Shown piece by piece: positions 6,067-51,820 of a stretch of 64,000 nucleotides of DNA. The stretch lies in assembly GCA_964533615.1 (NCBI GenBank), contig CAZHMK010000004.1:138398-202397 (forward strand), given 5' to 3'. The translations under genes and the position numbers were made by a program. Numbering within the stretch: the first letter of the stretch is position 1; each line of letters opens with the position of its first letter. The notes beneath the pieces were generated by a model. That model made no database searches. It was not told the origin of the DNA and saw nothing but the letters and a program-made list of their open reading frames with translations. The stretch is from an uncultured Eubacteriaceae bacterium (lineage in GTDB: Bacteria; Bacillota; Clostridia; Eubacteriales; UBA1433).

Positions 6067-6242
6067 TATTGCACTCTCCTGTTTTTTTATTCTCTATATG
6101 TTTATATTATATATCAATTTATATATCGATCACTATGAAAGTATACAATATTCTGTTTTTTTATCGCATTTAAAAAAGCTGATATAATTATTGATTGACA
6201 AAATAAAAGCAGATGCATATAATGTAGAATTGAAAATCAAAT

Positions 6243-6343
6243 ATCGATTGGAGAGCTCGCGCAAGCGGGCTGAGAGTAAGCGTATCGCCGCTTTTATCCT
6301 GTTAACCTGATTTGGATAATGCCAACGTAGGAAAATAATCAAA
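6243..6343 (+). promoter_or_regulatory. TPP (THI-box) riboswitch aptamer
   Basis: Contains GGCTGAGAG and AACCTGATTTGGATAATGCCAACGTAGGAAA, close to the TPP riboswitch consensus CUGAGA...ACCUGAUCUGGAUAAUGCCAGCGUAGGGAA. Upstream of thiW. Confidence 0.85.
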
Positions 6344-6351
6344 GCATAGAA

Positions 6352-6387
6352 CACTTCGTAGGATATCCTGCGAAGTGATTTTTTTTA
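6352..6387 (+). terminator. Riboswitch expression-platform intrinsic terminator
   Basis: 11-bp stem CACTTCGTAGG/CCTGCGAAGTG with a 4-nt loop, followed by ATTTTTTTT. Lies immediately before the thiW RBS. Confidence 0.75.
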
Positions 6388-6404
6388 TCATAAGGAGAAT
6401 AATC

Positions 6405-6923
6405 ATGAAAAATCTGAGAACAAAAAAATTAGTTATGGTTGCCTTTTTATCTTCACTGAGCTATGTGCTGAGCACCTTTATTTTTATTCCGAACATGGCA
6501 CCTATGCAGCATTTTATCAATGTTGTCTCCGCAGTGCTGCTCGGGCCTAGCGGAGCGCTGGCATGCGCAACGCTGACGGGATGCATGCGTATGCTTTTCA
6601 ACGGCCGCCCCATCATCGCTGTTACGGGAGCCATTTTCGGCGCGCTGCTGGCGGGGCTTCTATACCGCAAATTTAAAAAACTTTACTGGGCAGTCATCGG
6701 CGAAGTGATCGGAACGGGCATCATCGGCGCTATGGTCTCCATTCCTTTTATGAAGCTGTTTTACGGGCTGCCTGCCGATACGTCACCGTTTTTCTACATA
6801 TCCTTTTTTACTCCCTCTTCCGCCGCGGGCGCGATCCTTGGTTTTCTGCTCCTCTCGGCGCTTAAAAAAACGAAGACGCTTGATAAATTAACTCTTCAAA
6901 GCGGCAGACAAAAAGAAAAATAA
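6405..6923 (+). CDS. thiW: ECF-transporter S component ThiW (thiazole precursor)
   Basis: The ATG at 6405 follows AAGGAGA. About 172 aa, 5-6 TM helices, Gly/Ala-rich helices typical of ThiW. Controlled by the TPP riboswitch. Confidence 0.75.
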   Translation: MKNLRTKKLVMVAFLSSLSYVLSTFIFIPNMAPMQHFINVVSAVLLGPSGALACATLTGCMRMLFNGRPIIAVTGAIFGALLAGLLYRKFKKLYWAVIGEVIGTGIIGAMVSIPFMKLFYGLPADTSPFFYISFFTPSSAAGAILGFLLLSALKKTKTLDKLTLQSGRQKEK

Positions 6924-7681: not shown

Positions 7682-7756
7682 GCTATATCAATAAAATGAA
7701 ATAAAAAATACAAATCATAAAATCAATCAAGCTACCCCTTGCAGAGGAGTCTTTGT

Positions 7757-8680
7757 ATGATAGAATTTTCGGTCGTTATCAACCAGGTTCTGATATTATT
7801 TTTTATGGCGCTTATAGGATTCATCGCAGGCAAAACAGGCGTTTTAAAGCAGGAACATAAACCCGTTCTTTCAAAAATGCTGATCAATATCACGCTGCCC
7901 TGCATGCTTGTTGATGCGATCATGTCAACGACCGACAGGCTCAGCTCAAAAGATGTGCTTATCACCCTTTCCGTCTCGCTTGTCACCTACATTGCGGGGT
8001 ATATCCTTGCGATGGCGATCCCGAAATTAATGAAAATAGATCAAGAGCAAAAAGGCGTCTACAGTTTCAGTATGCTTTACACAAATGTAGGGTTTTTAGG
8101 ATTTCCCATTCTTGCGATGATCCTCGGAAAATCCGCGGTCATTTATGCCATTATCTTCAACATCGTCTACTATGCCACCTTTTTCCCGCTCGGTATGTAT
8201 ATGCTGCGCGGCACAAGAACAAGGCCGACATTAAAAGAAATGTTTCCGCCTTTCACAATCGCTTTCATTATTGCGCTTGCATTCTATTTTTTGAAGATAA
8301 CACTTCCTTACCCTATTTTAAAAACGGTCTCTTTGGTAGGCGGCATGACGCTTCCGCTTTCTATGCTGTTTGTGGGGCTTTGTCTATGCGAGGTCGATTT
8401 TAAATCGATCCTCAAAAATAAAAACGTACTCTTTGTATCCTTATATAGAGTACTTCTTTTCCCCGCTGCCATGTATTTTGTACTGCGGCTCTTTACCGAT
8501 AACTTCATCTATATCGCACCCGGCGTGATCATGTTTGCCATGCCCGTTGCCGCGCTCCTTCCCGCTTTTGCCAAAGAGAGCGGCAAGGATGATAAGGAAG
8601 GTGCGGTCATTGTCACCATTTCCACGCTGTTTATGCTGTTCGGTTTGCCTGTTATCGGACTGCTGCTTGCAATGGGATAG
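7757..8680 (+). CDS. AEC (auxin efflux carrier) family transporter
   Basis: About 307 aa, about 10 TM helices, AEC-like N-terminus (VINQVLILFFMALIGFIAGK). The ATG at 7757 follows GAGGAG. Confidence 0.8.
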   Translation: MIEFSVVINQVLILFFMALIGFIAGKTGVLKQEHKPVLSKMLINITLPCMLVDAIMSTTDRLSSKDVLITLSVSLVTYIAGYILAMAIPKLMKIDQEQKGVYSFSMLYTNVGFLGFPILAMILGKSAVIYAIIFNIVYYATFFPLGMYMLRGTRTRPTLKEMFPPFTIAFIIALAFYFLKITLPYPILKTVSLVGGMTLPLSMLFVGLCLCEVDFKSILKNKNVLFVSLYRVLLFPAAMYFVLRLFTDNFIYIAPGVIMFAMPVAALLPAFAKESGKDDKEGAVIVTISTLFMLFGLPVIGLLLAMG

Positions 8681-9108
8681 AATACATTAATCAGATTTTC
8701 CAGTACCTTAAAACATAGCCAACTATATAACAGCAGTGATTAAGTGTTACATTAATCAGATTTTCCAGCACCTTAAAACTTTATAAACTCACATACATCG
8801 ATAATTGCAGTGTTACATTAATCAGATTTTCCAGCACCTTAAAACTAGTTTTATGACAGGTTTTACAGCAGAAGCGTGTTACATTAATCAGATTTTCCAG
8901 CACCTTAAAACTTCATAACCGTAGCACGGACAATTTTTGCAGTGTTACATTAATCAGATTTTCCAGCACCTTAAAACCTTCTATGTCGCTTTTTGATTCT
9001 CTCATTAGTGTTACATTAATCAGATTTTCCAGCACCTTAAAACTATTTTTCTTCAGCAATTCTTTTTTTAGAGTGTTACATTAATCAGATTTTCCAGCAC
9101 CTTAAAAC
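8679..9108 (-). CRISPR. CRISPR array, 7 repeats / 6 spacers (type II-A)
   Basis: Six identical 36-bp repeats (plus strand GTGTTACATTAATCAGATTTTCCAGCACCTTAAAAC) start at 8744, 8810, 8876, 8942, 9008 and 9073. A degenerate copy with 5 mismatches is at 8679-8714. Spacers are 29-30 bp. The transcribed-strand repeat is GTTTTAAGGTGCTGGAAAATCTGATTAATGTAACAC. The degenerate repeat is distal to the cas genes. Confidence 0.97.
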
Positions 9109-9116
9109 CTATAGCT

Positions 9117-9145
9117 ATTTTATCAACAATTTTTCAGTTGTTCAA
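9117..9145 (-). promoter_or_regulatory. Putative pre-crRNA promoter overlapping the csn2 3' end
   Basis: Minus strand reads TTGAAC-N17-TAAAAT with an extended -10 TG (TGATAAAAT). The -10 ends about 8 nt before the first repeat. The csn2 stop codon (9134-9136) lies inside the spacer. Confidence 0.45.
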
Positions 9146-10000
9146 GTAGTTACAGACGCTTTGTGTTAATAAGTCTTTATTTGCTAAATCACATAAAATG
9201 TATAATTCATCTTTTTGGCGCAGTAATGTATCTATTAATTTCCCATTCAGTATAATTGATAAGTTATTTAGAAAAACAGTATGAAGGCTTTGCGCTTCTT
9301 CCCGAGTTGTTATCCCCAATCGTTTTGAAATCAAACTTATAAGTTCATCAGTCATATAATTTACAATTTCTTTATCAATAATAAGTATGTTGCCTTGTTT
9401 CTCAATCGTAGATTTGCTTGAAAGGATCTCGCATATGATGCATTTTTCTTGTTTCTTTAATTCGTCTATAAGCATATCTGTGTCGATAAACTCATCAATT
9501 TCTTTTGAATAAAATATTATAAACTGCATTTCCTTCATTTTCTTAATAGCGTCAACGATAATATCTACAATTTTACCTATTTTTATTTTGTATGTAATTT
9601 GAGATTTTAATATTTTATCAATGTTGATTTCTGAATTGATGAATCCATAGTGATGAAAATATCTTTCATTCAACACATTTAATTTTTCACTGAGTAATAG
9701 TTCTAACGCATCTTTTTCATCCATTTCTTTTAGAACATATTTCACATATTCTTCAATTAATTTATTCCTTCCGTTTAAAAATTGCATTATATCCGATAGA
9801 TTTGTTAAAGTAATGAAACAAAAGTTTCTTACATTCAAATTATGATTATTTAATAAAACTTTAGATTCGTGTTCACTATACTGACTTGCATAATATAAAT
9901 TTTGCCATAGTTTGAAATAATTCGGCTTATTTAAAATTAAAAGTTTGTTGTAATTCGTGCATATCATTTCATTGCCTTTTATTGATAGAATATTAATCAA
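9134..10000 (-). CDS. csn2: Csn2-like protein (fourth gene of the type II-A adaptation module)
   Basis: 288 aa. Called by position: 4-bp ATGA overlap with cas2, directly followed by the array. Composition is similar to Csn2 (Ile/Leu/Lys-rich). Homology was not verified. Confidence 0.5.
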   Translation of the reverse strand: MINILSIKGNEMICTNYNKLLILNKPNYFKLWQNLYYASQYSEHESKVLLNNHNLNVRNFCFITLTNLSDIMQFLNGRNKLIEEYVKYVLKEMDEKDALELLLSEKLNVLNERYFHHYGFINSEINIDKILKSQITYKIKIGKIVDIIVDAIKKMKEMQFIIFYSKEIDEFIDTDMLIDELKKQEKCIICEILSSKSTIEKQGNILIIDKEIVNYMTDELISLISKRLGITTREEAQSLHTVFLNNLSIILNGKLIDTLLRQKDELYILCDLANKDLLTQSVCNYLNN

Positions 10001-10326
10001 AAAATCACCACGCTTTCTTTTGAAACTTTTTTCTCATGATTGTTTCTGCTACCTGACAAAAAAATCATATTTTCATATTGTTTTTCTGTGATTTTAATTA
10101 CTCGTATTTCACCCGAAGATGGCAAAACTTTTTTGAGCTTTGTTATAAAAGAATTATAGTTTACTTCTTTACCTAAAATTTTGGCATAAATAGAATATTG
10201 TATTCGATAGCAACCTAAAGTTAATAGATTTTTTCTGAATTTATTATATTCTTTCACATCAATATTTTCTGTCATTGGCAAGTCATACATTATTAAAATT
10301 CTCACTTTTTTATAATCACTATCCAT
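9997..10326 (-). CDS. cas2: CRISPR-associated endoribonuclease Cas2
   Basis: 109 aa. The N-terminal ILIMYDL beta-strand carries the conserved Asp. Abuts the cas1 stop. Confidence 0.85.
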   Translation of the reverse strand: MDSDYKKVRILIMYDLPMTENIDVKEYNKFRKNLLTLGCYRIQYSIYAKILGKEVNYNSFITKLKKVLPSSGEIRVIKITEKQYENMIFLSGSRNNHEKKVSKESVVIF

Positions 10327-11229
10327 TTAGTATTTTTCCAAAACAGGATAATAAAAATTACGCAGCTTGCCGCTTTCTATACAGGAAAGAACGTCATTGA
10401 CATATACGGCGACTGAATTCAAGATTGAAAATTGTTTACCGCAGATACTGATCTTGTTGTTTAATATGTCTATTAACTCTTTTTTTAATTCTTTATCTAT
10501 TCTGTAATTCTTTCTATCTTTTTTTGTGAGCAGAATATTATAAACGAAGTAATCCACAATGGGTCTGTATATCTCAATCAAATCATCACTTAAATTAAAA
10601 TAATTGTATTCACTTTTGTGATTCAATCCGAGCTGAGTGTTATACCCTCTGCCGATGATTTCTTTTGTTATCAACGTTCGCACAAGATGATAACTGAAAT
10701 TCAAGCATGCGTTGATGATATCTTCTTCAAAGCGCACAAAACTCTCTCCAAACATCTCTTTGAAATATATCCTCGCTATAGTTCCCTCCCTGTTTGTCTT
10801 GTCTCCCAATGTTATGGTAGAAAAAAGATTGATTATTATATCTAATTTATTTATCTTCTTTAATTTTGAAAGAGTATTGATTTGATTTAATATTTTATAT
10901 GATATTATTTTTGTCCAAACTTCTTCTTTAATTTTATCATCCCAGTTGATTTGATTGAGAAGTCTTTTTGAGCTTCTGACATTGTTTTGCAGAGGTTGCA
11001 TTTCTCCTACCGGAAGATGATTATCTCCCATAACAATTACGCATATGCCGGATTTTGCCAGTTCACTTAGCAATCTGCAGGTAATATTGCAAAACATATC
11101 TTCAATAACGATTATACCTATTTCTTCTAAACTAATGTGATATTTTTGCTCCTGATGAATGACTTGTACATGATTGATATTAAGACTTATTTTTTGTGCA
11201 TCTGTAATATAGATTATTCGCCAGCTCAT
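10327..11229 (-). CDS. cas1: CRISPR-associated endonuclease Cas1 (type II)
   Basis: About 300 aa. Motifs NACLNFSYHLV and GLNHKSEYNYFNLSDDLIEIYRPIVD (catalytic His/Asp region). The ATG at 11229 is preferred over the GTG at 11235. Confidence 0.9.
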   Translation of the reverse strand: MSWRIIYITDAQKISLNINHVQVIHQEQKYHISLEEIGIIVIEDMFCNITCRLLSELAKSGICVIVMGDNHLPVGEMQPLQNNVRSSKRLLNQINWDDKIKEEVWTKIISYKILNQINTLSKLKKINKLDIIINLFSTITLGDKTNREGTIARIYFKEMFGESFVRFEEDIINACLNFSYHLVRTLITKEIIGRGYNTQLGLNHKSEYNYFNLSDDLIEIYRPIVDYFVYNILLTKKDRKNYRIDKELKKELIDILNNKISICGKQFSILNSVAVYVNDVLSCIESGKLRNFYYPVLEKY

Positions 11230-11237
11230 TTTCACCG

Positions 11238-11326
11238 TTAAAAGGAAAGAAGCCCTTTCGGGCTTCTTTGGGTTCAGAATTCACGTACAATAATAAGGAA
11301 CTCTGAAAAATCTGATTAATGTAACG
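11238..11326 (-). ncRNA. tracrRNA: tracrRNA (predicted, about 89 nt)
   Basis: Minus strand: CGUUACAUUAAUCAGAUUUUUCAGAGUUCCUUAUUAUUGUACGUGAAUUCUGAACCCAAAGAAGCCCGAAAGGGCUUCUUUCCUUUUAA. The anti-repeat pairs with the crRNA repeat as 23 bp, an internal loop, then 5 bp. It ends in a 10-bp GAAA-tetraloop terminator plus a U tract. Confidence 0.8.
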
Positions 11327-11331
11327 TTTTT

Positions 11332-11360
11332 ATTGTATAAGTAAAAATTTTTCTTGTCAA
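11332..11360 (-). promoter_or_regulatory. tracrRNA promoter
   Basis: Minus strand reads TTGACA (11360-11355), a 17-nt spacer, then TACAAT (11337-11332). The -35 begins 2 nt after the cas9 stop codon. Confidence 0.6.
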
Positions 11361-11362
11361 GT

Positions 11363-14300
11363 TTATTTTGGTACATTTAGATTATACAGCCCTAAAATAT
11401 CCATATTAATTTTTTTTATTTCTATTGTCTTTTTTTGAGTAATGCTAATACAATTTTTAACTATAATTTTTGCATTATTTTTATGAAAATCACCTACAAA
11501 ACCCTCATGCACTGTGGCATCATTATTTACAAATCTGATATATTCATTATTGAATAAATCCATATAAAAATCCAATTCATTTCTATCAACACCAATAAAT
11601 TCATTATATAATGTTTTATAATACTTGCTGTCTTGGAGCACTTTCTTGGTTTTAAAGTCCACGCACACTTTATAAATGGGCATTATATATAATTTCCCTG
11701 TCTCTTTATGCTTAAATACTCTTGAGCAATATTGTTGAAGACTGTCATACATTAAAAAAGTATTTTCCTTTTTATTGATTGATTTCTTTTCAAGCAAAAA
11801 TGGTGTCGTTACTTTTTTTAAATATCTTAACTTTTTGACAATAGGGCTGCTTGTCTTGTCATCCCTCCTTATTCCGTGAATATTATAATTAAATACCTCT
11901 CCTTCCGCTACATTGTTTTCCAGACAGTATGCCACAAATGGATTTATACCGCCAGATGAATATTTTTCTAAGATATCATGCAACTTGTTATATAGATGCG
12001 GATCGTTTTTCTTGCATAAGAGTTCTTTGGTGTTATCATGAAACACTTTTTTTATATTATCTATTGTTTTTTTTATTTCATTATTATCCGCAGAATTATT
12101 TTCCGATGATGTGTTTACATAAATATTTGGAATTTCACTAATTTTATAATATTGATTGTCTTTTTTGTTTTTGATAACTTTTTGTACATTTGCATCATAC
12201 AACTTACCTTGCGGATTTTTTTTAACCTCCATAGAACATCTAGTATTTTCAAATGAAGCTTCTTTTAGCGAATCTCTGATTTTACTCGGCAGATTAAGCA
12301 TATCGAAAAGCTGATCCCTGTTTTCGCTTACTATATTACTCAGCCAGTATTTGTCGGGATTATTTTGTATTAATGCCATCAATCGGCCAATCGGAAGCAA
12401 GATTATGGAAGCAATAACCCCTGCATCAACGGCATGATGGAAGCCTTTATCCCTATCCTTTTCAACACCATTTCTATTTCTGATAATTGCGGTTAATTTA
12501 CCAGGTATTTTAATTATTTTTAAATCTAATTGTTCTTCATTGTTATTTTCATAAGCTTTTAAAAACAACTTTAATTGATTGGCTAATTCGTTTGTGGCAT
12601 AAGCTGTATCGTTTAGATTTCTGTTTTTAAATCTTTTTTCATATTTTATTAATTCACCGGTAAATAAGAGATAGCCTTTTTTAGCGTTGCTAATATTTTT
12701 ATTTGCTTTGATTCGTTTTTCAAATTCTTCGTATTGATTAATTGAAGTAAGGTAAGCAAGCGGTGTTCTCTGCCCTTTATTATGATTGCAATCATAGCAT
12801 GATATAGTTTTATTCGAAAATGAATCATCACCTGTGATGCTTTTTGGCAAGATATGCTCTATTTCACAATTGTTTAAACTAATGGGGGCATTGCAATATG
12901 CGCATTTAAAATCCATTTCTTTTAATAATAAATACTTATTGATATTGTTATCCGTACAATCATATCCTAAATCAACAAGTTTTTTTCTTGCTTCTTCTCT
13001 GGTTCTGAAATTTTCTAATGTCGCTTTTTCATATTCCTTTTTTTGGTCATTTGATAGTATGTTTGTAGTTGCTTCAATGCAAATATACGCGGGATAACCG
13101 TATTTTCTGAAAAGCTTATTGAGCACGGTTATTGCCTTGCGCAAAGATTTTTTTGTTTGAGGCGATGCTACTAAATCGTCAATAAAATTAGTGGATATAT
13201 ACTTTAATTCACCTGCTTCAATGTTCTGATTTATATAATGTTCAATTTTATATTGTTCTGTGTCAGCATTTATTTCATGCGGGTAAGTTCTTTCAATATA
13301 AGATGAATTTTTGTTATACTGTTTCATTAATGAAAGATATTTCTTTATTGCTTTCTCTGAAAAATTTTGATATTTATTTTCAATCTTTGATTTTATTTCT
13401 TTGGTTTTTAGAATATTTAATAATTCATAGCTTAAATGCGGAAGTTTGGTTTCAAGCATATCAAATCTTGTATTCTCATCAGGTGAAATATTAATAATCT
13501 CAATAGCTGTATTATATACATCAATATTTTCTGTTAATTCCTCGAATAACTGCTCATTATTTATAACTTTTTTTATGCTCCGGTATGTTTTAAAAGTTGA
13601 TATAGATTCAGACCCAACAGTTTTTTCACCAATGATTACATTTACTTTGAATTTTTTTCTTATCAGCGGTTTTATTTGTTTTACTGAGTTTAAAATCTCC
13701 TCTTTTAATTCTTCTATTGCAAAAGTTTTTAATTTATAGGTAGTGTTATCAATTTTTTCAAAATAACTTAGATTTTCATTGTTCATTTCATCAACAGAAA
13801 ATTTTAGGTTTGTTAAGTCATTATAAAAATTAAAGTATTCGGCATAAAAATTACTGCTGTTAACTTTCTTTTCTCCGATATAAATCTTACAGTTGCCTAC
13901 AAGATTTTCATATAAATATTTATTATAATTATTATCAAGTTCATACTTTTCAATATCTTCTTTTACTTTATATCTTCCATACTTTGTAAGTGCGTTTAAA
14001 CGCGGAGCACCTGGTCCTTCCCAAAATTGTCTTTTAGAATCTAATATTTGTATAACATCATTTAAAAAATTGTCAGTTAAAACTTGTGGATAATATCTTT
14101 TTTGATTTCCAAATAAAGTTTTCAATTCCTGTATATAGTCCTTATGCGTTATTGTGTATGCTGCTCCTCTATACTGACCATATGTATTCAGCAACTCCTT
14201 TTGTATTTCGCACGGCATATATCCTTTATCTCTTAGCTCTGTCACAAATTCATTTACTCTTTCCTCATCTCCAAAGGGTATATACCCTCTGTGACGCGCA

Positions 14301-14647
14301 AAATATATAATGATATTGATAATATCCTGCATCTCTAATTTTTCGCCACTTTTTATTGCTCGTATTCTCTTTTCCAATAACTTAGAATCAATTGTGTTTT
14401 CATAATAAATATTATTTGCTTGAAATAATTTATACAGCCTTTCAATGCGATGATTTTTTCTTTTTATCCGTCTTCTGATATTGCGGAAATTTCTTCTATC
14501 CACTGCCTTTTCTGCTTGAGAAAAAAAACTGACTCCGCGATCAATAACTTCTTTTTTCGCTAAATCAATTACGCTCCATCCAATATCTGCAACACCCAAA
14601 TCAATGCCAATGGATATATTTTCATTCTTATTTATTTTTTCTGCCAT
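11363..14647 (-). CDS. cas9: CRISPR-associated endonuclease Cas9, compact type II-A ortholog
   Basis: 1094 aa. RuvC-I IGIDLGVADIGWSV, Arg-rich bridge helix RRNFRNIRRRIKRKNHRIERL, RuvC-II YICIEATT, HNH EIEHILPKS...CNHNKGQRTP, RuvC-III GFHHAVDAGV. All catalytic residues are present. Confidence 0.95.
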   Translation of the reverse strand: MAEKINKNENISIGIDLGVADIGWSVIDLAKKEVIDRGVSFFSQAEKAVDRRNFRNIRRRIKRKNHRIERLYKLFQANNIYYENTIDSKLLEKRIRAIKSGEKLEMQDIINIIIYFARHRGYIPFGDEERVNEFVTELRDKGYMPCEIQKELLNTYGQYRGAAYTITHKDYIQELKTLFGNQKRYYPQVLTDNFLNDVIQILDSKRQFWEGPGAPRLNALTKYGRYKVKEDIEKYELDNNYNKYLYENLVGNCKIYIGEKKVNSSNFYAEYFNFYNDLTNLKFSVDEMNNENLSYFEKIDNTTYKLKTFAIEELKEEILNSVKQIKPLIRKKFKVNVIIGEKTVGSESISTFKTYRSIKKVINNEQLFEELTENIDVYNTAIEIINISPDENTRFDMLETKLPHLSYELLNILKTKEIKSKIENKYQNFSEKAIKKYLSLMKQYNKNSSYIERTYPHEINADTEQYKIEHYINQNIEAGELKYISTNFIDDLVASPQTKKSLRKAITVLNKLFRKYGYPAYICIEATTNILSNDQKKEYEKATLENFRTREEARKKLVDLGYDCTDNNINKYLLLKEMDFKCAYCNAPISLNNCEIEHILPKSITGDDSFSNKTISCYDCNHNKGQRTPLAYLTSINQYEEFEKRIKANKNISNAKKGYLLFTGELIKYEKRFKNRNLNDTAYATNELANQLKLFLKAYENNNEEQLDLKIIKIPGKLTAIIRNRNGVEKDRDKGFHHAVDAGVIASIILLPIGRLMALIQNNPDKYWLSNIVSENRDQLFDMLNLPSKIRDSLKEASFENTRCSMEVKKNPQGKLYDANVQKVIKNKKDNQYYKISEIPNIYVNTSSENNSADNNEIKKTIDNIKKVFHDNTKELLCKKNDPHLYNKLHDILEKYSSGGINPFVAYCLENNVAEGEVFNYNIHGIRRDDKTSSPIVKKLRYLKKVTTPFLLEKKSINKKENTFLMYDSLQQYCSRVFKHKETGKLYIMPIYKVCVDFKTKKVLQDSKYYKTLYNEFIGVDRNELDFYMDLFNNEYIRFVNNDATVHEGFVGDFHKNNAKIIVKNCISITQKKTIEIKKINMDILGLYNLNVPK

Positions 14648-14798
14648 GACAATACCCCTTAATTTTCTATATTATTTTTATACGATCATTTTAATAACAA
14701 TTATAAATACATCATATCACCAATTTAAACAATTACAATTATTTTTCTGCAATAATTCTTCTGTTTTGTCATATTTGGTACAAAAACGGTACACATAT

Positions 14799-14828
14799 AA
14801 AAAAAGAGCCCTTTCGGCTCTTTTTTTT
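14799..14828 (-). terminator. Intrinsic terminator after the Ldh2-family gene (bidirectional in form)
   Basis: AAAAAGAGCC-CTTTC-GGCTCTTTTTTTT hairpin flanked by A and T runs, 28 nt downstream of the 14856 stop. Confidence 0.7.
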
Positions 14829-14855
14829 ACCCTCTTACAATTACTCAAACTCTTT

Positions 14856-15962
14856 TCAGACTGTCTCGGTCTGCTCATAGAGCGCAAAGAAATCATCTAT
14901 TTTTGCGCCCTGCGGCAGCCTGTTGTATTTTATGGCAAGGTTCTTTAAATCATTCTGCACAACCATATCCACGGGCACGATGTTTTCCTCCATGCGCCTT
15001 ACCGTATAGTTGTACTCAATTTCTCCGGGAAGGAATATCTCTTCCACATCCGCTTTTTTCTTTGAACTTTTTATCTTCATATAATAGGCATCGACATCAT
15101 TTTGATACTCTTCAAACGGCCTGAATTTATTGATATCGATAGCGAGCATGAAATATCCCAGCCCTTTTCCGCTTCCGCCCGTTTCCCCGCCTGTCATTAA
15201 CGCCGATATCATCTCAATAGCCACGCTCATGCAGTATCCCTTTACGCCGCCAAGCGGAAGGAGTGTGCCTGTGAGGATTCCTTTTAACGGGTTTCTGTCT
15301 TTAAAACCATCAAAGGGGTCGGTCGTGTCGTTGCCGTTTTCATCTTGTATCCAGCCGACGGGGATTTTTTTGCCCGCACGTATTGCCATTTCGATCTTGC
15401 CTCCGGCTACGGTGCTGCATGCCATGTCATACATGATGGGCGGCGTTTTTTTGCCCGGCGGAAAAGCCCAGCTGTTAGGGCCGTTTCCGATCACAGCTTC
15501 AATGCCACCGGTAGGTGCCATGAGTTGTGTCGAACCTGACGCTGCATAACCGATTAATCCTTCATTTACAGCCATAAGCGAATAGTATCCCGCAATGCCA
15601 AAATGATTGCCGCCTTTTGCCGCGGCAAGGCCAATGCCTGTTTTCTTTGCCATTTCAACGGCTTTTTCCATCACCAGCGGAGCGACTGTGATGCCGCATC
15701 CATAATCACAGTCAAACGCCGCCGTACTCGCCGTCTCATTTGTGATACGCACATTTGGTTTTAGATTGATGAGCCCGTTTGTGATGTCTTTTTCGTACAT
15801 TGCCAGCCTCGGCAATCCATGAGAGGCCACACCCCGTATGTCGGATGCGATGAGCACATCCGCACCGCGTTTTGCCGCCGCCTCGTCCATGCCGAAAGAT
15901 TCAAGCGTATCTCGTGCGATCTTCTTTGCCGTATCGATACTTATAATTTTTTCTCTAGCCAA
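14856..15962 (-). CDS. Ldh2-family (malate/L-lactate/sulfolactate dehydrogenase type 2) oxidoreductase
   Basis: 368 aa. N-terminal ...ASDIRGVASHGLPRL... and overall pattern are typical of the Ldh_2 family. Confidence 0.8.
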   Translation of the reverse strand: MAREKIISIDTAKKIARDTLESFGMDEAAAKRGADVLIASDIRGVASHGLPRLAMYEKDITNGLINLKPNVRITNETASTAAFDCDYGCGITVAPLVMEKAVEMAKKTGIGLAAAKGGNHFGIAGYYSLMAVNEGLIGYAASGSTQLMAPTGGIEAVIGNGPNSWAFPPGKKTPPIMYDMACSTVAGGKIEMAIRAGKKIPVGWIQDENGNDTTDPFDGFKDRNPLKGILTGTLLPLGGVKGYCMSVAIEMISALMTGGETGGSGKGLGYFMLAIDINKFRPFEEYQNDVDAYYMKIKSSKKKADVEEIFLPGEIEYNYTVRRMEENIVPVDMVVQNDLKNLAIKYNRLPQGAKIDDFFALYEQTETV

Positions 15963-22326: not shown

Positions 22327-23334
22327 ATGAATACATTGCTGACATTACATAAAGAACACTCTTTTCCATCCTTTACACTTATTAAATCATTTTTTATAAA
22401 CAGCTTTGCTATCTTAAACAAACAAAAAAAAGAAACGTTTATTATCTTAGGAGTATTAACTTCGATTATTACGAGCCTAATTTTTATGATGCTGTTTTCA
22501 TGGTTTATTCCAACGATAAAATATTTACTTACATTACTGGGAACACAGCCTTTAGAAGATATTCCCAAATCATGGATGCTTTCAACATTATTATTTTGTA
22601 TACTCATTTACTGCATCATTTCATGTTTAATGGTGTTTATAAAAAATATTTTTGTTACATTATCTTTTAATTATTATAATGATCGTCATTTTTTATCATA
22701 TAATGAAATCATGCGTTTTTCTTTTAGGCGGCTTCCGAAAACATTGCTGGTCAACTTGAGCATATTTATTTTGCTTGCAATGTTTATTTTCCTTACATTC
22801 TACATTGCGTATCTGTCTGCTCAACCATATTTTTATTTTAAAGATATGTCGATCAAACTGCTTGGAGACAGTCTTTTAATCAGCCGTAAAAGTTTGATTA
22901 TTTTTTCCTCTGTCAGTATAATCGGGCTGCTGGTTACCATTGGTCTTGCCTCCTTCTTTCAGCTTGCGCAAATGCTGACTTTGTTATATGATATAAAAAT
23001 TGCAAAAGCACTTAAGTATTCATTTCTTTTAATAAAAAACAACTATAAAATAAATTTGTCTGTTTTCTTTTTCAGTAATTTAATAAGTATCGTATGTGTC
23101 ATCCTCGTTGTCTTTCTTTTAAGCATAAGTGTGATAGGTCTTGCTTTACTTGTTCCGATTTATTTACTGATTAAAATTATTCGCTACTTGTTTTCTTCTC
23201 AAGTTATGCTGTATCATTATACTAACTATATTAATACAAATGCATTTTCAGTTAATGCCGTTAATTTATACAAAATATTTTTCCATTTATTTGTCGATAC
23301 TAACACCAAAAACGCCGATTCATTAGCAGTATAG
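22327..23334 (+). CDS. Polytopic membrane protein, unknown function
   Basis: 335 aa, about 7 hydrophobic helices, GAGAGG RBS. No family recognised. Confidence 0.6.
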   Translation: MNTLLTLHKEHSFPSFTLIKSFFINSFAILNKQKKETFIILGVLTSIITSLIFMMLFSWFIPTIKYLLTLLGTQPLEDIPKSWMLSTLLFCILIYCIISCLMVFIKNIFVTLSFNYYNDRHFLSYNEIMRFSFRRLPKTLLVNLSIFILLAMFIFLTFYIAYLSAQPYFYFKDMSIKLLGDSLLISRKSLIIFSSVSIIGLLVTIGLASFFQLAQMLTLLYDIKIAKALKYSFLLIKNNYKINLSVFFFSNLISIVCVILVVFLLSISVIGLALLVPIYLLIKIIRYLFSSQVMLYHYTNYINTNAFSVNAVNLYKIFFHLFVDTNTKNADSLAV

Positions 23335-25523: not shown

Positions 25524-26198
25524 TTGGATGAGAAAATTGAAGTAAACAATTGCTGTATGGAAGTTGATTGTTTAATTGTAAATAAAGTTTACGACGCATG
25601 TTCAAAGCGCGATTGTTTGGAGCGAGCATTATTTTGCGTAAACTTCCCAACAGGTACAGCCGATGATTATAAATTTTTACATGCCGAATTCGGCAAAGCA
25701 CAAGTAGAACATTGGGGAGATTATCCGTTTTTCCAAGAGATTAATGAAAATTATGCGTTGATGCGATTTGTCGCAGCAATTCCTGTTTATGTAGTTGTCA
25801 AAAGAAAATGTGACGGAGAAATTTTCAGACTTCCCGCCAAACTACTTGTAAACGGAACAATGCAATGCGATAACAAAATACGTTTCCCGGTAGAAGTTGT
25901 TGTCTACGCTCCGGCCGAATATTTAAGACAAGGTCGTTTTGAACCTTATGTAGAAAGCTTCGCGGAAGTGGGATATAGTAATCTCGTAGATAATAGAGAA
26001 GCAATACAACTCAGCATCGGTGTATTCTTAATTGTAAAAGTTGTCAGTGAAGTACAACTTAAAATTCCTACTTATGGTTTTTGTGATATTCCGCCTGAAT
26101 GTGATGAAATACCAAGTAATATCGAATTCTGCGATACATTCATGGATGAAAATGTTACTCCATTCCCGGAATTTTTCCCGCCTCAGCAAAGATGTTAG
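25524..26198 (+). CDS. Cys-rich hypothetical protein
   Basis: 224 aa. TTG start 8 nt after AAGGAGGA. 13 Cys, including NNCCMEVDC and a terminal Cys. No family recognised. Confidence 0.5.
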   Translation: MDEKIEVNNCCMEVDCLIVNKVYDACSKRDCLERALFCVNFPTGTADDYKFLHAEFGKAQVEHWGDYPFFQEINENYALMRFVAAIPVYVVVKRKCDGEIFRLPAKLLVNGTMQCDNKIRFPVEVVVYAPAEYLRQGRFEPYVESFAEVGYSNLVDNREAIQLSIGVFLIVKVVSEVQLKIPTYGFCDIPPECDEIPSNIEFCDTFMDENVTPFPEFFPPQQRC

Positions 26199-26211
26199 CA
26201 AATCGATTTAC

Positions 26212-26240
26212 AAAAAAAGACAGCTTGCTGTCTTTTTTAT
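26212..26240 (+). terminator. Intrinsic terminator
   Basis: AAAAAAAGACAG-CTTG-CTGTCTTTTTT downstream of the 26198 stop. Confidence 0.6.
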
Positions 26241-26305
26241 TTTCTTTTTTTTATAATTTGATTATAATATACTTTGAAGTAATTACCAAATATAGAGAGG
26301 TTCCT

Positions 26306-28132
26306 ATGATTAAAAGAAGTATTAAACCGATCTTATCGTTATTATTTATAACCACATTCTTACTTTTTAATATGACATTTATATCAGCGGAAGACGAACT
26401 ACTCACACAGGATAATGTGAAACTGACTCTAAGCACGGCGCAAGTTGTAAGCAGCGGCCAAGGTAAAACAATAGATGATATCTACACCGTAAGTGAGGAC
26501 AGTGTATTTACTCAGACATACAGCATTAAAAACTCCTCCGCATATACAGGTTCTATAGAAATAGCGATTTATGAAAGAATAACGACATCCAATGGAAGCA
26601 TTATAGAAGACAAAACATTAAACGCAACCGTTAATCAAAACTCGACAGCAAAAGTGACAGGCACATCTGTTACAATGAAGTCTACATATGGCAAATACAT
26701 CACGATTGCCTGCAAACTCATGTATAAGCTGGACAATGAATGGATTGAATATTCTTCATCAAGCAGTACGATAGAGCTTTATTCCCCGCAATTTACCGTA
26801 ACTTATACCACAGATGCAGATCCTGTCGGCATCAGCGATTTCCCTGTTTTTTTCGGTGGAAAAGTAATCTTATCTTCAGGCGTGAGAGCCAATGATATCA
26901 AAATTTATGATTCAGTCTATGGCTTGCTTGAAAAGATTGGCGATTTAAAAGAAGGTCAAAGCAAGCGCTTTCATAAAGATATCTCTGTTCCGGCAGGCTC
27001 CATCAACTCATATGTTATTTTAGAATATACGAACGCCATGACAGGCGAAAACGTGCGGTCAGAGCTCCCGACAGTCAAGGTTACAGGAAAAGTTATAGAT
27101 TCACCGATTGAGAGTAAACTGACTTTAGACATAACTCCTGCAAAAACGTATATCGAAACTGCAGAAAAAATGGACATCACTTTTGACTTTCAAAATAACA
27201 CAGACTATGAAGTCATCACAGCTTTTATATACCTGCTTGACGATCAAGGCAAAGCCTCAGAAGAGCCTATCATTGATATAGGTGCGGTTGAACCGGGTGC
27301 CGCAAACTCTTCTACGGAAAATATGACTATTGAGCCCGATGAGCAATATTCGTTCGCAATTTACGCCTATGTGGCTGACAGCAGCACCCCTTTTAAAGCA
27401 ACAACAGATCTAACGATCTCGTCTGTGCCTCCAAGTCTGGAGATACAGCGAAGCATCGATACAGATAAGCTACCCTTCTACACAGATACAACAATCTCAT
27501 ATTCCGCCAAGAACGTCAGTGGCTATGAACTAACAGACGTGGTAATAACAGACGGTATTTTGGGAGAAATCTATACTGCAGAAAGCATCGCTACAGGCGA
27601 AGAATTCACCTTTGCGGCAACCGGTAAATTTACAAATGATTTCATCAGTGCACCAAGCGCGAGCTTGACTATACAAGATGGGAAAAATACTGCAAATTCT
27701 TTCATATTATCAAAACAAATCTTTGAAATTGAACGAAAAAATGAACCAAGCGCCATGCTTTTAATCGAAAATATTGACTCTAAAGATAAAGAGAATGTCA
27801 GTTTTGATGTAATCCTGCTCAACGACGGAAATGCTAACTTAAGTAATATAGAAATCATCGATGCGAGAAACAGTGCTTTACTTGAAACACTTGATTCCCT
27901 TATCATCGGTGATAAACAAACAATACAATTATCTGATCAAAACTATGCAGACGATAAAAATATTACTTTAAAAGTGAAATGTACAACAGATGACGGAACA
28001 CAACTGGAATTTTCCTATGATCCTGTCAGCCTTTCGACCTTTCCGCTCACTGCCGTCATTATTATCGGCGCAGTGTTTATAGTTCTTGCAGTATGTATTA
28101 TAATAATAAAATCAAGACAAAAAAACAAATAA
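26306..28132 (+). CDS. Secreted, C-terminally membrane-anchored multi-domain surface protein
   Basis: About 608 aa from MIKRSIKP (AGAGAGG RBS). Signal peptide ending FISAEDE. About 5 beta-rich modules of roughly 100 aa resembling CARDB/DUF11-type repeats. C-terminal TM helix followed by KSRQKNK. Confidence 0.6.
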   Translation: MIKRSIKPILSLLFITTFLLFNMTFISAEDELLTQDNVKLTLSTAQVVSSGQGKTIDDIYTVSEDSVFTQTYSIKNSSAYTGSIEIAIYERITTSNGSIIEDKTLNATVNQNSTAKVTGTSVTMKSTYGKYITIACKLMYKLDNEWIEYSSSSSTIELYSPQFTVTYTTDADPVGISDFPVFFGGKVILSSGVRANDIKIYDSVYGLLEKIGDLKEGQSKRFHKDISVPAGSINSYVILEYTNAMTGENVRSELPTVKVTGKVIDSPIESKLTLDITPAKTYIETAEKMDITFDFQNNTDYEVITAFIYLLDDQGKASEEPIIDIGAVEPGAANSSTENMTIEPDEQYSFAIYAYVADSSTPFKATTDLTISSVPPSLEIQRSIDTDKLPFYTDTTISYSAKNVSGYELTDVVITDGILGEIYTAESIATGEEFTFAATGKFTNDFISAPSASLTIQDGKNTANSFILSKQIFEIERKNEPSAMLLIENIDSKDKENVSFDVILLNDGNANLSNIEIIDARNSALLETLDSLIIGDKQTIQLSDQNYADDKNITLKVKCTTDDGTQLEFSYDPVSLSTFPLTAVIIIGAVFIVLAVCIIIIKSRQKNK

Positions 28133-48072: not shown

Positions 48073-48894
48073 TTATTCGTCAATAACTATAAAATGATGC
48101 TTGATTGTCTGTTTTTCTATAGGAGGTAATTTTGTATAATCTCCATAGACACGTCTTAAAAGATAATCATATTGTCTGGGAGCGGGAAACATATGCCCTT
48201 CAAACTCCACTTCAACAGGCTGCCCGTATACTTCATTGGGCACTGTTTGATTAAACATATTATGATAACTTGCCAGAGTAACTGTGTATTGATTATTTTT
48301 TCTGTCATTATATAGCTTAAAATTTTTATCCAGCAGCTTGTGTATTGTATTGATTGAAAGAAACTTTGATGACGCAGTAACTAATTTCCTCTTCACATTG
48401 TTTGGTTTGCGAAGAACCAATTTATAAGTAAGCATTGCTCTTAAAAAATTTATTTTCATCCCCTGCCATAATTGTCCAAGACTTTTTTGTTTTGGAACGG
48501 ATTCCATTGGGAAAATATCAATATAAGGCCCATTATTTTGTGTTAAATGCGCTATGTGTTTTTGTTTAAATTTTTGTTTACCAAGCAATCTTACTTTAAT
48601 AAACGGCGACCAATAACTATATACTGTACTGGGATGCTGTATTTCATAGTTCAGTCCCATTTCTTCCGGTGCAATTTTTAAAAATTTTTCATATTCATCC
48701 CGCTTCATTAAAATATCCAAATCATCGTCCCAAGGAATAAATCCTTTATGCCTAATTGCACCGAGCAGAGAACCTTCTCCGAGATAATAAGTAATGCCAT
48801 GTTTTTTACATATTTTATCTACCTGCAATAAGATATCTAATTCTATAGCCTGCAGCTCTCTTATTTGTTCTATAGTCAATTTTGAATTCTCCAA
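48073..48894 (-). CDS. licD: LicD-family phospho(no)-alcohol transferase
   Basis: 273 aa. YYLGEGSLLGAIRHKGFIPWDDDLDILM is the LicD signature. Confidence 0.8.
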   Translation of the reverse strand: MENSKLTIEQIRELQAIELDILLQVDKICKKHGITYYLGEGSLLGAIRHKGFIPWDDDLDILMKRDEYEKFLKIAPEEMGLNYEIQHPSTVYSYWSPFIKVRLLGKQKFKQKHIAHLTQNNGPYIDIFPMESVPKQKSLGQLWQGMKINFLRAMLTYKLVLRKPNNVKRKLVTASSKFLSINTIHKLLDKNFKLYNDRKNNQYTVTLASYHNMFNQTVPNEVYGQPVEVEFEGHMFPAPRQYDYLLRRVYGDYTKLPPIEKQTIKHHFIVIDE

Positions 48895-49072
48895 TTATAA
48901 TGATGATACTTAAAATCATTCATATAATATATTTGTTCTATTATTATAGACGCATAAATTTGTTTTATGTTCTATTGTATTATTCTCTAACGTATATTAT
49001 TTGACATATGCTAAATATATCATTTCTATTATACAAAAACAAAGCCGATTACACAACTTATAAATTTCTTAA

Positions 49073-50953
49073 TTATTTACCTGATAATTTTGTTATATAA
49101 ATAAAACTATGCCTTGATTTTCTCTTTTCAAGAGGTGGAAATGTTAAGTAATCACCGTAAATAATGCCCAAAACCAAATCATATTCCTGCGGCACAGGCA
49201 ACATCAATCCTTCAAAAGATATATATTGTGCCTTGCTAAATGCCTGAGCGGGAAAAGTTTGTTTTTTTAGTTGATAAGAGCTGCAGTAATTTGCTACATA
49301 ATCACAGCCAGATTTATCATTATAATATGTTGAAAGCGCTTCTATTTTTTTATGCAAAACTTCATAAGAACAAAAATAAGATTTTATTTTTGTAAAGAAT
49401 TTTTCTTTGGTCACTTTCATAGGATAACCTGTTTTAAAAAGAAGCATATCTCTGTATTTTCTTATTTTTTTTCTTCTTCTATTCTGCTCTTCTCCATATT
49501 CAACAGCTTTATCCAAAGGAAAAATATCAATATATACTCCATTGTATTCTTTTAAAGAAAAACTCTCATTATTAATAAAACCGGTATTTTCCAGTATGAC
49601 TATTTTTGAAAACGGCAAATGATATTCTTTGATTGTATGTCGATTGCATAATTTGCACCCATTGATTATTTGAGTATTAAACAACTTGATAAATTTATTA
49701 TAATCATCTCTTGGCATAATAATATCGACATCATCATCCCATGGTATAAACCCGTTATGACGGATCGCACCCAACAGCGTCCCTTCCGCTAAATAATAAG
49801 TAATATTGTTTTCTATGCAAAAAGCATCCACGATTTTTAGAATCTCCAATTCAATTAATTGCAATTTTTTAAATTGTTCAGGTGAAAAGTTTGCTTTGAT
49901 GAGCTTCTTTTTTTTACGCCAGAAAATCTTCATCAGCGCTCGGCGAAAACACATAGGTATAATAAAATACATTTTGAGTTTTGTCTTGTGCATTTTTGCT
50001 TTCGTAAACTTTTTTTGCGTTCTTTTTTTTATTAAATTTTTATATGAATATTGATAATATCTATTTTTTCTCCAATTAGGAAAATGATTGTCTAAATACT
50101 CATATGCACTATCAAAAAACTGATTCTGAAATTTTCTGTCAGTCGAATTTTTAAGTGTATTAATTCTTGCAAATATATGCATTCTGCATATATTTTCTAA
50201 AACTTCATAAGCGACGTCAAAAACTCCTTTTGATTTATAAAAATCAATTATGCTGTCACATGATTTAAAGATATCAAAAAGTCCCATATTCATGCTGTTC
50301 GTAATAGAATCTGTTCTGTCTGTTCTATAATTGCATAAAGCTTTATCTACCAGCTCAATTTTATTGGCCATTAAAAGTATATTATAGACAATAGCCGAAT
50401 CTTCAAAAACTTGTCCAACGGGAAAATATAAGTCATTATCAATAAATAATTTCCTTCTATACAGTTTATTAAATGCATAAGATTTGCACGCAAATAACAC
50501 TTCTGGATTTTCCTCAACGCTGCCGCCGAAGGCTCTTAAATAATGCAGAGGCATGATCTTTGTTTTATCTTCTTTGAGCTGATTAATGTAACAAACAACA
50601 ACATCGCAGTCTTGATCCACTGCTTTTGAATACATTTCTTCCAGCATATTTGTTTCAACATAATCATCAGAATCAACAAAGCCTATATATTCTCCTTGCG
50701 CCCTTTTTATCCCATAATTACGCGCATCACTGAGCCCACCGTTTTCTTTAGTATACGATTTTATTTTATTGGGATATTTTCGCATATATTCGTCAATAAT
50801 TAATTGCGAATTATCTGGAGAGCCGTCATTAATGACAAGTATTTCAATGTCCTTAAGGCTTTGATGAACTAAGCTGTCTAAGCACTGAGGTAAATATTTT
50901 TCCACATTATAAACTGGTACGACAACAGATACTTTTATATTATTTTTTTTCAT
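49073..50953 (-). CDS. Family-2 glycosyltransferase fused to a LicD domain
   Basis: 626 aa. N-terminal GT2 (VSVVVPVYNVEKYLPQCLDSL, DSDD). C-terminal LicD (YYLAEGTLLGAIRHNGFIPWDDDVDIIM). A basic/hydrophobic linker joins the two. Confidence 0.8.
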   Translation of the reverse strand: MKKNNIKVSVVVPVYNVEKYLPQCLDSLVHQSLKDIEILVINDGSPDNSQLIIDEYMRKYPNKIKSYTKENGGLSDARNYGIKRAQGEYIGFVDSDDYVETNMLEEMYSKAVDQDCDVVVCYINQLKEDKTKIMPLHYLRAFGGSVEENPEVLFACKSYAFNKLYRRKLFIDNDLYFPVGQVFEDSAIVYNILLMANKIELVDKALCNYRTDRTDSITNSMNMGLFDIFKSCDSIIDFYKSKGVFDVAYEVLENICRMHIFARINTLKNSTDRKFQNQFFDSAYEYLDNHFPNWRKNRYYQYSYKNLIKKRTQKKFTKAKMHKTKLKMYFIIPMCFRRALMKIFWRKKKKLIKANFSPEQFKKLQLIELEILKIVDAFCIENNITYYLAEGTLLGAIRHNGFIPWDDDVDIIMPRDDYNKFIKLFNTQIINGCKLCNRHTIKEYHLPFSKIVILENTGFINNESFSLKEYNGVYIDIFPLDKAVEYGEEQNRRRKKIRKYRDMLLFKTGYPMKVTKEKFFTKIKSYFCSYEVLHKKIEALSTYYNDKSGCDYVANYCSSYQLKKQTFPAQAFSKAQYISFEGLMLPVPQEYDLVLGIIYGDYLTFPPLEKRKSRHSFIYITKLSGK

Positions 50954-50963
50954 ATATTTCCCT

Positions 50964-51818
50964 TTACTTATCAGTTAAGTCTTGTTTTATTGAAAAATGG
51001 TGTTTCATTATTCTTTCTGACTCATCAGGTAACAACATATACTCTCCGTAAATAGCCGTAAGCAAACATTCCGTTTTGGCAGGTATTGGAAATTCACATC
51101 CTTCAAAAACATGCATTCTGCCTTTATCATAAACAGATTTATGCACTGTCTGATTAGCAGGCGGATAATAGCTTCCATAGCTTACCATATATTCATTATT
51201 TTTTTTATGATTATATTTTGTCATAATTTTTTTTATTTTTTTATGTATAAATTTAACAGTTATTATTTTACTGAATAAAAATAATGCAATATTAAATTTA
51301 TTTTTAAAATTCATAGAATATCGTGTTTTAAAAAACAATGTTCTACGTAACGCTTTTATTTTATATCCCTGCCACAGTTGTATGAAACTGCTTCGTTTAG
51401 GAACATAATCCAATGGGAAAATGTCTATGTAAGGACCGTAATATCTAGATAATTTTTTTACTTTAGACTGCTCATATCTAGTTTGCCGTGTTAATTTTAC
51501 TTTTGCACCGATTACCCAATAGTTTGGATTTGTTTCCATGCAGTCCAAAAAATACCCTTTAGGAAGCAATATTGGAGCCAGACTTATAAATTCCTCATAA
51601 TCATCTCTCGGCATCAAAATATCGACATCATCATCCCATGGTATAAAACCGTCATGTCGAATCGCTCCAAGTAAAGTTCCTTCTCCCAAATAATAATTGA
51701 TATTGTTTTGTTTACAAAATTCATCAACCACAAGCAAAATCTCTAATCCATATGCCTGCAGTTCTTCGATTTGATCATATGTATTATCTTGTTTATATAC
51801 TGCTTCCATTTCTCTCAC
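50964..51818 (-). CDS. licD: LicD-family phospho(no)-alcohol transferase
   Basis: 284 aa. YYLGEGTLLGAIRHDGFIPWDDDVDILM. Confidence 0.8.
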   Translation of the reverse strand: MREMEAVYKQDNTYDQIEELQAYGLEILLVVDEFCKQNNINYYLGEGTLLGAIRHDGFIPWDDDVDILMPRDDYEEFISLAPILLPKGYFLDCMETNPNYWVIGAKVKLTRQTRYEQSKVKKLSRYYGPYIDIFPLDYVPKRSSFIQLWQGYKIKALRRTLFFKTRYSMNFKNKFNIALFLFSKIITVKFIHKKIKKIMTKYNHKKNNEYMVSYGSYYPPANQTVHKSVYDKGRMHVFEGCEFPIPAKTECLLTAIYGEYMLLPDESERIMKHHFSIKQDLTDK

Positions 51819-51820
51819 TT

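Follow-up and report, generated by a model that had tools for sequence, protein, structure and literature searches.

A 64,000-nucleotide stretch of DNA from an uncultured Eubacteriaceae bacterium (assembly GCA_964533615.1, contig CAZHMK010000004.1, positions 138,398 to 202,397 of the forward strand), referred to here as the window, carries what is very probably an intact type II-A CRISPR-Cas9 adaptive immunity locus on a chromosomal island of low GC in a Firmicute-like anaerobe. In this locus, genes and RNA elements alike are present and intact. A cas9 gene, a gene for a trans-activating CRISPR RNA (tracrRNA), cas1, cas2, a fourth gene, and the repeat array all lie on the minus strand and together span 8679-14647. 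The features are as follows:

14700-14729, minus strand: candidate cas9 promoter, TTTAAA-18-TATAAT, 10 of 12 consensus positions; a consensus match only, with a presumed function
11363-14647, minus strand: cas9, an intact open reading frame (ORF) of 1094 aa
11332-11360, minus strand: putative tracrRNA promoter, TTGACA-17-TACAAT, 11 of 12 consensus positions
11241-11326, minus strand: predicted tracrRNA of about 86 nt, its exact ends placed by prediction
10327-11235, minus strand: type II cas1, 302 aa when counted from a GTG start
9997-10326, minus strand: cas2, 109 aa
9134-10000, minus strand: predicted divergent csn2, 288 aa, whose TTG start overlaps the cas2 stop codon (TTGA)
9109-9145, minus strand: short leader with a candidate promoter for the CRISPR RNA precursor (pre-crRNA), -35 TTGAAC at 9145-9140 and extended -10 TGaTAAAAT at 9125-9117
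8679-9108, minus strand: CRISPR array with six spacers, six 36-nt repeats that are all identical, and a degenerate repeat at its end

This layout bears out most of what a sequence-only reading of the window had proposed. That reading described a complete type II-A system on one strand, made up of a cas9 with all of its RuvC and HNH motifs, cas1, cas2, a tracrRNA with its own promoter and terminator, a csn2-like gene, and an array of six identical repeats with a degenerate repeat at its end. Every element was recovered on the minus strand at the positions listed. Direct searches with the csn2-like gene were empty; remote homology and the predicted fold confirmed it by an indirect route, and the II-A subtype is supported through that Csn2 assignment. 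In the array, the repeat GTTTTAAGGTGCTGGAAAATCTGATTAATGTAACAC (36 nt) occurs in six exact copies at 9108-8744 on the minus strand, with 0 copies expected by chance as judged from 100 dinucleotide-preserving shuffles. Repeat starts are 65-66 nt apart, and the six spacers are 29-30 nt long. The terminal seventh repeat (8714-8679, minus strand) differs by five substitutions, located at position 11 and at the last four positions. The polarity of the array is as expected, with the leader beside csn2 and the degenerate repeat distal. The ORF list and public gene calls place no cas4 in the operon. The gene order cas9-tracr-cas1-cas2-csn2-array is kept in about 28 related loci from metagenome-assembled genomes (MAGs) of Clostridia, Bacilli, and Tenericutes.

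Cas9 matches the equivalog model TIGR01865 along its full length (402 bits, where the cutoff is 100; E 6.5e-120) and contains the Pfam domains HNH_4, WED, and RuvC_III. Scanning 185,579 species-representative genomes with a Cas9 alignment yielded 45 related loci, almost all of them from gut MAGs labeled Clostridia, Bacilli, Tenericutes, or Mycoplasmatales. In an 18-member alignment of the clade, the catalytic residues of RuvC-I (D16), RuvC-II (E525), HNH (H598 and N621), and RuvC-III (H737, H738, and D741) are the same in every member, and the arginine-rich bridge helix is invariant too. The same catalytic residues fall on the SaCas9 motifs GLDIG, IIIELARE, EVDHIIP, N-x-KKGN, and HHAEDA in a BLASTP alignment. 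Because these residues are invariant in the clade and aligned with the SaCas9 motifs, the protein is free of any inactivating lesion, a defect that would have counted against the sequence-only reading had alignment revealed it. The HNH domain also holds four cysteines, C582, C585, C617, and C620 (CxxC...CxxC), that are invariant in 18 of 18 clade members and absent at the aligned SaCas9 positions. This set of residues suggests a zinc-binding HNH, a type that occurs in many stand-alone HNH nucleases.

A search of the PDB found the closest solved Cas9s to be SaCas9-family chains and St1Cas9 (E 7e-54 to 1e-48), which are type II-A proteins; by these PDB match scores alone, the type II-C Cas9s (Nme, Geo) scored lower. 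Identity to SaCas9 is 27% over 985 columns by BLASTP, far from the near-identity to a characterized Cas9 that would have removed the novelty claimed in the sequence-only reading. The nearest non-identical proteins in a collection of 5.8 billion are about 51% identical and unnamed. Judged by sequence, this Cas9 is far from all characterized orthologs. The two small adaptation proteins were assigned directly. Cas1 matches the type II model TIGR03639 (E 5.6e-83, 278 bits) and the PADLOC model Cas1_II (E 1.2e-91), and Cas2 matches TIGR01573 (E 1.5e-22, 79.7 bits) and PADLOC Cas2_II (E 9e-34). The scores for Cas9, Cas1, and Cas2 are all far over the curated cutoffs, and Pfam and PADLOC give concordant assignments for these proteins. 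Public gene callers start cas1 at an ATG two codons downstream of the GTG, which gives a protein of 300 aa.

Between cas9 and cas1 lies a gap of 127 nt containing an anti-repeat (11326-11293, minus strand) that is predicted to pair with the repeat at -37.3 kcal/mol; the duplex has an upper stem of 23 bp, then an internal bulge, and a lower stem of 5 bp. The best sigma-70-like promoter match in 8400-15200, TTGACA-17-TACAAT, lies some 6 nt upstream of that anti-repeat. A GC-rich terminator hairpin, AAGAAGCCC-GAAA-GGGCTTCTT (11269-11246, minus strand), is followed by TCCTTTT. The 86-nt RNA has a minimum free energy of -27.8 kcal/mol (z = -6.6 vs shuffles). An anti-repeat also occupies this gap in about 20 related loci, where it fits the locus's own, different repeat at -30 to -47 kcal/mol, and an alignment of tracrRNAs from seven loci has a conserved core, CAG...TATTAT, and compensatory changes in the terminator stem. 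No tracrRNA family in Rfam matched in the region. On the strength of the pairing, the folding, and the covariation, we take the predicted tracrRNA to be real. A tracrRNA between cas9 and cas1 has been documented in three type II-A subclusters (PMC3737331).

The identity of the fourth gene, the single doubtful point in the sequence-only reading, decides the subtype, and it required a longer chain of evidence. Through the overlapping start and stop codons, the gene is translationally coupled to cas2. In the roughly 28 related loci, wherever the sequence suffices, cas2 is followed by a gene for a protein of 270-321 aa and then by the array, and BLAST links join these syntenic proteins into one family, to which the 288-aa protein of the window belongs. 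The family was aligned as the window's subclade (A4, 9 sequences), the remaining members (A5, 20 sequences), and the combined family (A2). Comparison of A4 with A5 by hhalign gave a probability of 98.7% and an E value of 3.6e-16 over 259 columns. When the A5 profile was searched against the PDB, its sole match, nearly full length, was Stu0660 (3zth), the long Csn2 of S. thermophilus, at E 4.4e-5; the combined A2 profile reached 3zth at E 0.008. The 29 family members gave seven matches to Csn2 models of PADLOC (best E 1.2e-6), none of them from the window's subclade. With hhalign, A2 against the single Stu0660 sequence reached a probability of only 39%; the link to Stu0660 needed query-side profiles and a predicted fold. 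An AlphaFold2 model of the 288-aa protein was built with a 10-sequence alignment and compared with the PDB by Foldseek. All 19 matches at E <= 1e-3 were Csn2 chains, from 3zth (best, E 9.9e-8), 6qxf, 3s5u, 3v7f, 3qhq, 3toc, 9hp8, and 9vj8, and the next entries in the list were ABC-type ATPases. By these Foldseek results, the predicted model has the Csn2 fold of a degenerate P-loop-like head and a helical leg.

Synteny, the profile chain, and the predicted fold together identify the fourth gene as a very divergent Csn2 of the long, Stu0660-like type. Homology of this gene to Csn2 places the locus in subtype II-A. Public gene calls disagree on the length of the csn2-like gene, with 217 aa in one JGI record (L001:12861-13514) and 288 aa in two others (L002/L003:12648-13514). 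The longer, TTG-initiated form is supported by its N-terminus, including a near-invariant N18, which aligns with homologues. A fourth gene of this kind has precedent: Chylinski et al. 2013 (PMC3737331) noted type II-A loci of Mycoplasma and Staphylococcus in which the fourth gene bears no obvious resemblance to Csn2. Because of that report, fourth genes that evade Csn2 detection are already a known phenomenon, and what is added here is a family that current models do not cover.

Between the stop codon of csn2 and the start of the array there are just 25 nt. The promoter scan found a candidate pre-crRNA promoter of 9 of 12 consensus positions plus TG, with TTGAAC 17 nt upstream of the extended -10, and the leader ends, directly against the first repeat, in CTATAG (9114-9109). 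Among L005-L045, some 20 related loci almost always have the leader end (T/C)TATAG|GTTT, with TGnTAtAAT 8-10 nt upstream; the outlying loci L031 and L050 retain a T/ATTTGAG leader end. Type II-A leader ends have been described in the groups ATTTGAG, CTRCGAG, and CG (PMC5382924). By analogy with ATTTGAG and CTRCGAG, TATAG appears to be this clade's own version of the leader-anchoring sequence. At the other end of the operon, the candidate cas9 promoter sits downstream of the terminator (hairpin and T-run, 14783-14828) of the upstream Ldh_2-family gene. This terminator, a GC-rich hairpin, also gave the only sub-threshold Rfam match in the region, to an unrelated small RNA family, which reflects mere terminator resemblance.

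From the established type II-A pathway, we infer that the locus is expressed, that its RNAs are processed by RNase III, and that it can perform both cleavage and adaptation. The array would be transcribed from the promoter in its very short leader, and the tracrRNA from its own promoter between cas9 and cas1. The anti-repeat would pair with each repeat, and the duplex would be processed by host RNase III together with Cas9. Loaded with the CRISPR RNA (crRNA) and tracrRNA, Cas9 would then cut DNA flanked by a protospacer adjacent motif (PAM) through its HNH and RuvC sites. New spacers would be inserted at the leader-proximal repeat by Cas1-Cas2 with the divergent long-type Csn2 and with Cas9 as the PAM reader, and the conserved (y)TATAG leader end probably directs this insertion.

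Comparison with known systems places the locus near two well-studied ones. SaCas9 from Staphylococcus aureus (1053 aa; PDB 5axw/5czz/8zcy) shares the size class of the window Cas9, and SaCas9-family chains are collinear with its residues 9-1086 in the same order of RuvC, bridge helix, REC, HNH, WED, and PI. The single guide RNA scaffolds are also alike, with a bulge set between an upper stem that is long and a lower stem that is short. SaCas9 differs in that its HNH is without the four cysteines and in that the repeat and tracrRNA sequences are unrelated. S. thermophilus CRISPR1 likewise combines a compact Cas9, St1Cas9 (1121 aa, PDB 6rj9/6m0v, E ~1e-48), with a long-type Csn2, and its operon order, cas9-cas1-cas2-csn2-array, is the same as that of the locus described here. 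We take the CRISPR1 (St1) locus to be one of the three type II-A subclusters with a tracrRNA between cas9 and cas1. Stu0660 (PDB 3zth) is the best match to the fourth gene product in both sequence and structure; it has 350 aa compared with 288 aa here, and the similarity is visible only through family profiles or the predicted fold. By their description, the Mycoplasma and Staphylococcus loci of Chylinski et al. 2013 (PMC3737331) resemble this locus in having the same II-A-like operon with a fourth gene that evades Csn2 detection. The window Cas9 clade itself includes Mycoplasmatales, Tenericutes, and Anaeroplasma MAGs. The window's subclade comes from Clostridia-labeled MAGs, and its Cas9 is 33-38% identical to those of Tenericutes-labeled loci. 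In its leader end, (y)TATAG, the locus departs from the ATTTGAG, CTRCGAG, and CG groups (PMC5382924).

The sequence-only reading had ascribed the locus to an A+T-rich genome, and this description holds for the locus alone. Compared over 8679-14850, the locus has a GC content of 26-30%, whereas the flanking chromosome has 40-48%. The terminal repeat runs with its last 2 nt into the stop codon of a convergent Mem_trans gene (7739-8680). On that side, the Mem_trans permease, QueH, and ThiW follow; on the other are the Ldh_2-family dehydrogenase, a pyruvate:ferredoxin oxidoreductase cluster, and a GntR regulator. The neighbors on both sides are ordinary chromosomal genes, and the locus is probably a horizontally acquired, tightly inserted foreign island.

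Several results weigh against an intact type II-A locus, and there are alternative explanations. One alternative is a type II-C-like locus (cas9-cas1-cas2) beside an unrelated accessory gene, in which case the 288-aa protein would not be a Csn2. The protein has no match in Pfam, NCBIfam, or PADLOC at E <= 1, all of which contain Csn2 models, and phmmer found no matching sequence in the PDB, which includes several Csn2 structures. Its closest relatives match no Csn2 model either, and the A4 profile of its own subclade finds nothing in the PDB. Relatives are few: when 1.84 billion representative proteins were scanned in full with HMMER, only three came up, at 26-27% identity, and in a word-indexed search of 5.8 billion proteins the protein found itself alone and the family alignment found two proteins. 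The AlphaFold2 model is of moderate quality (predicted local distance difference test score 63.6; predicted template modeling score 0.56), with a template modeling score of 0.43 to 3zth. An automated typer using current models would miss csn2. Nevertheless, hhalign ties A4 to the rest of the syntenic family, which in turn matches Stu0660 alone in the PDB as well as the PADLOC Csn2 models, and the predicted fold retrieves Csn2 structures exclusively at E <= 1e-3. The position of the gene, its coupling to cas2, and the affinity of Cas9 to the II-A proteins SaCas9 and St1Cas9 also fit type II-A, and we consider the II-C-like alternative very improbable. It is slightly less probable still that Cas9 is an ortholog that has already been characterized and so offers nothing new for genome editing. 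The identical protein is already public, on 23 contigs as long as 747 kb in assemblies from NCBI, JGI, ENA, and Logan, one source labels it 'Csn1', and the comparison covered parts of the published Cas9 screens, including part of the supplement to the Gasiunas catalogue. Set against this are the 27% identity to the best solved relative, SaCas9, and the unnamed state of the nearest non-identical proteins. The clade motifs FWEGPG and LNDTAYAT do not occur in the part of the Gasiunas 2020 Cas9 catalogue supplement text that was available, and neither the repeat nor the Cas9 N-terminal peptide had a match in the literature texts searched. As far as can be checked, this Cas9 has been sequenced and is uncharacterized.

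The remaining alternative is a recently acquired system that looks intact and has fallen silent, a fossil that no longer performs acquisition or interference. The sequence-only reading had suggested deriving the PAM from spacer targets, and this search was unsuccessful. No protospacer for any of the six spacers was found in the window with up to 6 mismatches, in IMG/VR with the six exact spacer patterns and two 22-nt PAM-proximal seeds, or in GenBank phages or PLSDB plasmids by blastn with concatenated spacers, and JGI metagenome contigs gave no spacer match to queries consisting of the repeat and one 22-nt spacer seed. As no protospacer was found for any spacer, no PAM could be derived. The array is short, and it is the same in the three independent public samples from different sources that were examined (L001-L003), and it thus gives no hint that spacers have turned over recently. 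The strongly deviant GC content suggests that the system is foreign to its host. Also against an intact type II-A locus, cas1-cas2-csn2 is without an evident promoter of its own, and its transcription would need read-through of the tracrRNA terminator. A consensus terminator scan reported 0 sites; because it also missed the obvious terminator at 14783-14828, its negative result was discounted and folding was used instead. In favor of a working system, none of the four ORFs is shortened, the catalytic residues are conserved, the six repeats match one another perfectly, and the promoter, anti-repeat, and terminator are intact. Absent protospacer matches are also common for poorly sampled gut anaerobes, which usually yield none. 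A silent or fossil system is accordingly unlikely in our judgment, although it deserves more weight than the two alternatives above, and an intact type II-A locus remains the explanation that we favor. Large arrays occur in two related loci, with at least 67 repeats in a Mycoplasmatales MAG (L017:12476-16928) and at least 57 in a Bacilli MAG (L033:11364-15212). These arrays indicate that systems of the clade do accumulate spacers in nature, and their spacers are a minable source for clade PAMs.

Elsewhere in the window, a thiamine pyrophosphate (TPP) riboswitch (RF00059, 60.3 bits, over the gathering score) lies at 6239-6350 on the plus strand, directly upstream of an ORF (6375-6923) for a ThiW/energy-coupling factor (ECF)-type transporter of a thiamine precursor. 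At 48073-53653 on the minus strand, a region of about 30% GC holds three LicD-family genes, one with its LicD fused to a family-2 glycosyltransferase, and a nucleotidyltransferase/Fe-ADH fusion. Probably this is a variable island that serves cell-wall decoration of the phosphocholine or teichoic-acid type. Two plus-strand ORFs, at 22327-23334 (335 aa) and 26192-28132 (646 aa), had no Pfam match at E <= 1e-5. The window contains no rRNA or tRNA genes.

The system is an ordinary member of a well-known kind; its sequence is publicly available, uncharacterized Cas9 orthologs are numerous, and it leaves the understanding of the type II mechanism unchanged. What it offers for practical use is one more Cas9 of a size suited to adeno-associated virus (AAV) vectors (1094 aa) with a clearly defined crRNA:tracrRNA scaffold, such that the coordinates above could be taken straight into a PAM screen. 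Of modest interest besides are the Csn2 subfamily missed by current models, the TATAG leader end, and the four-cysteine HNH. Together they raise the tentative idea, which we hold to be possible rather than probable, of a distinct and unmodeled type II-A sub-lineage in gut Clostridia, Bacilli, and Tenericutes MAGs. Such a sub-lineage would be marked by a Csn2 of 270-320 aa that is mostly missed by libraries of hidden Markov models, by a (y)TATAG leader anchor, and by a compact Cas9 with a four-cysteine HNH. If this idea is true, the Cas9 of the window in particular would be active with the predicted guide of about 86 nt, would use a PAM unlike those of SaCas9 and St1Cas9, and would be one more useful editor of AAV size. 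TATAG, as a conserved leader end, would stand as a fourth variant of the leader anchor beside the three described for type II-A. For the family as a whole, the analysis points to an entire clade of type II-A systems with a Csn2 that is missed entirely by Pfam and NCBIfam and mostly by PADLOC. Automated typers would probably assign these loci to II-C or annotate their fourth gene as merely hypothetical, and alignments A2, A4, and A5 could seed a new model for this Csn2 subfamily.

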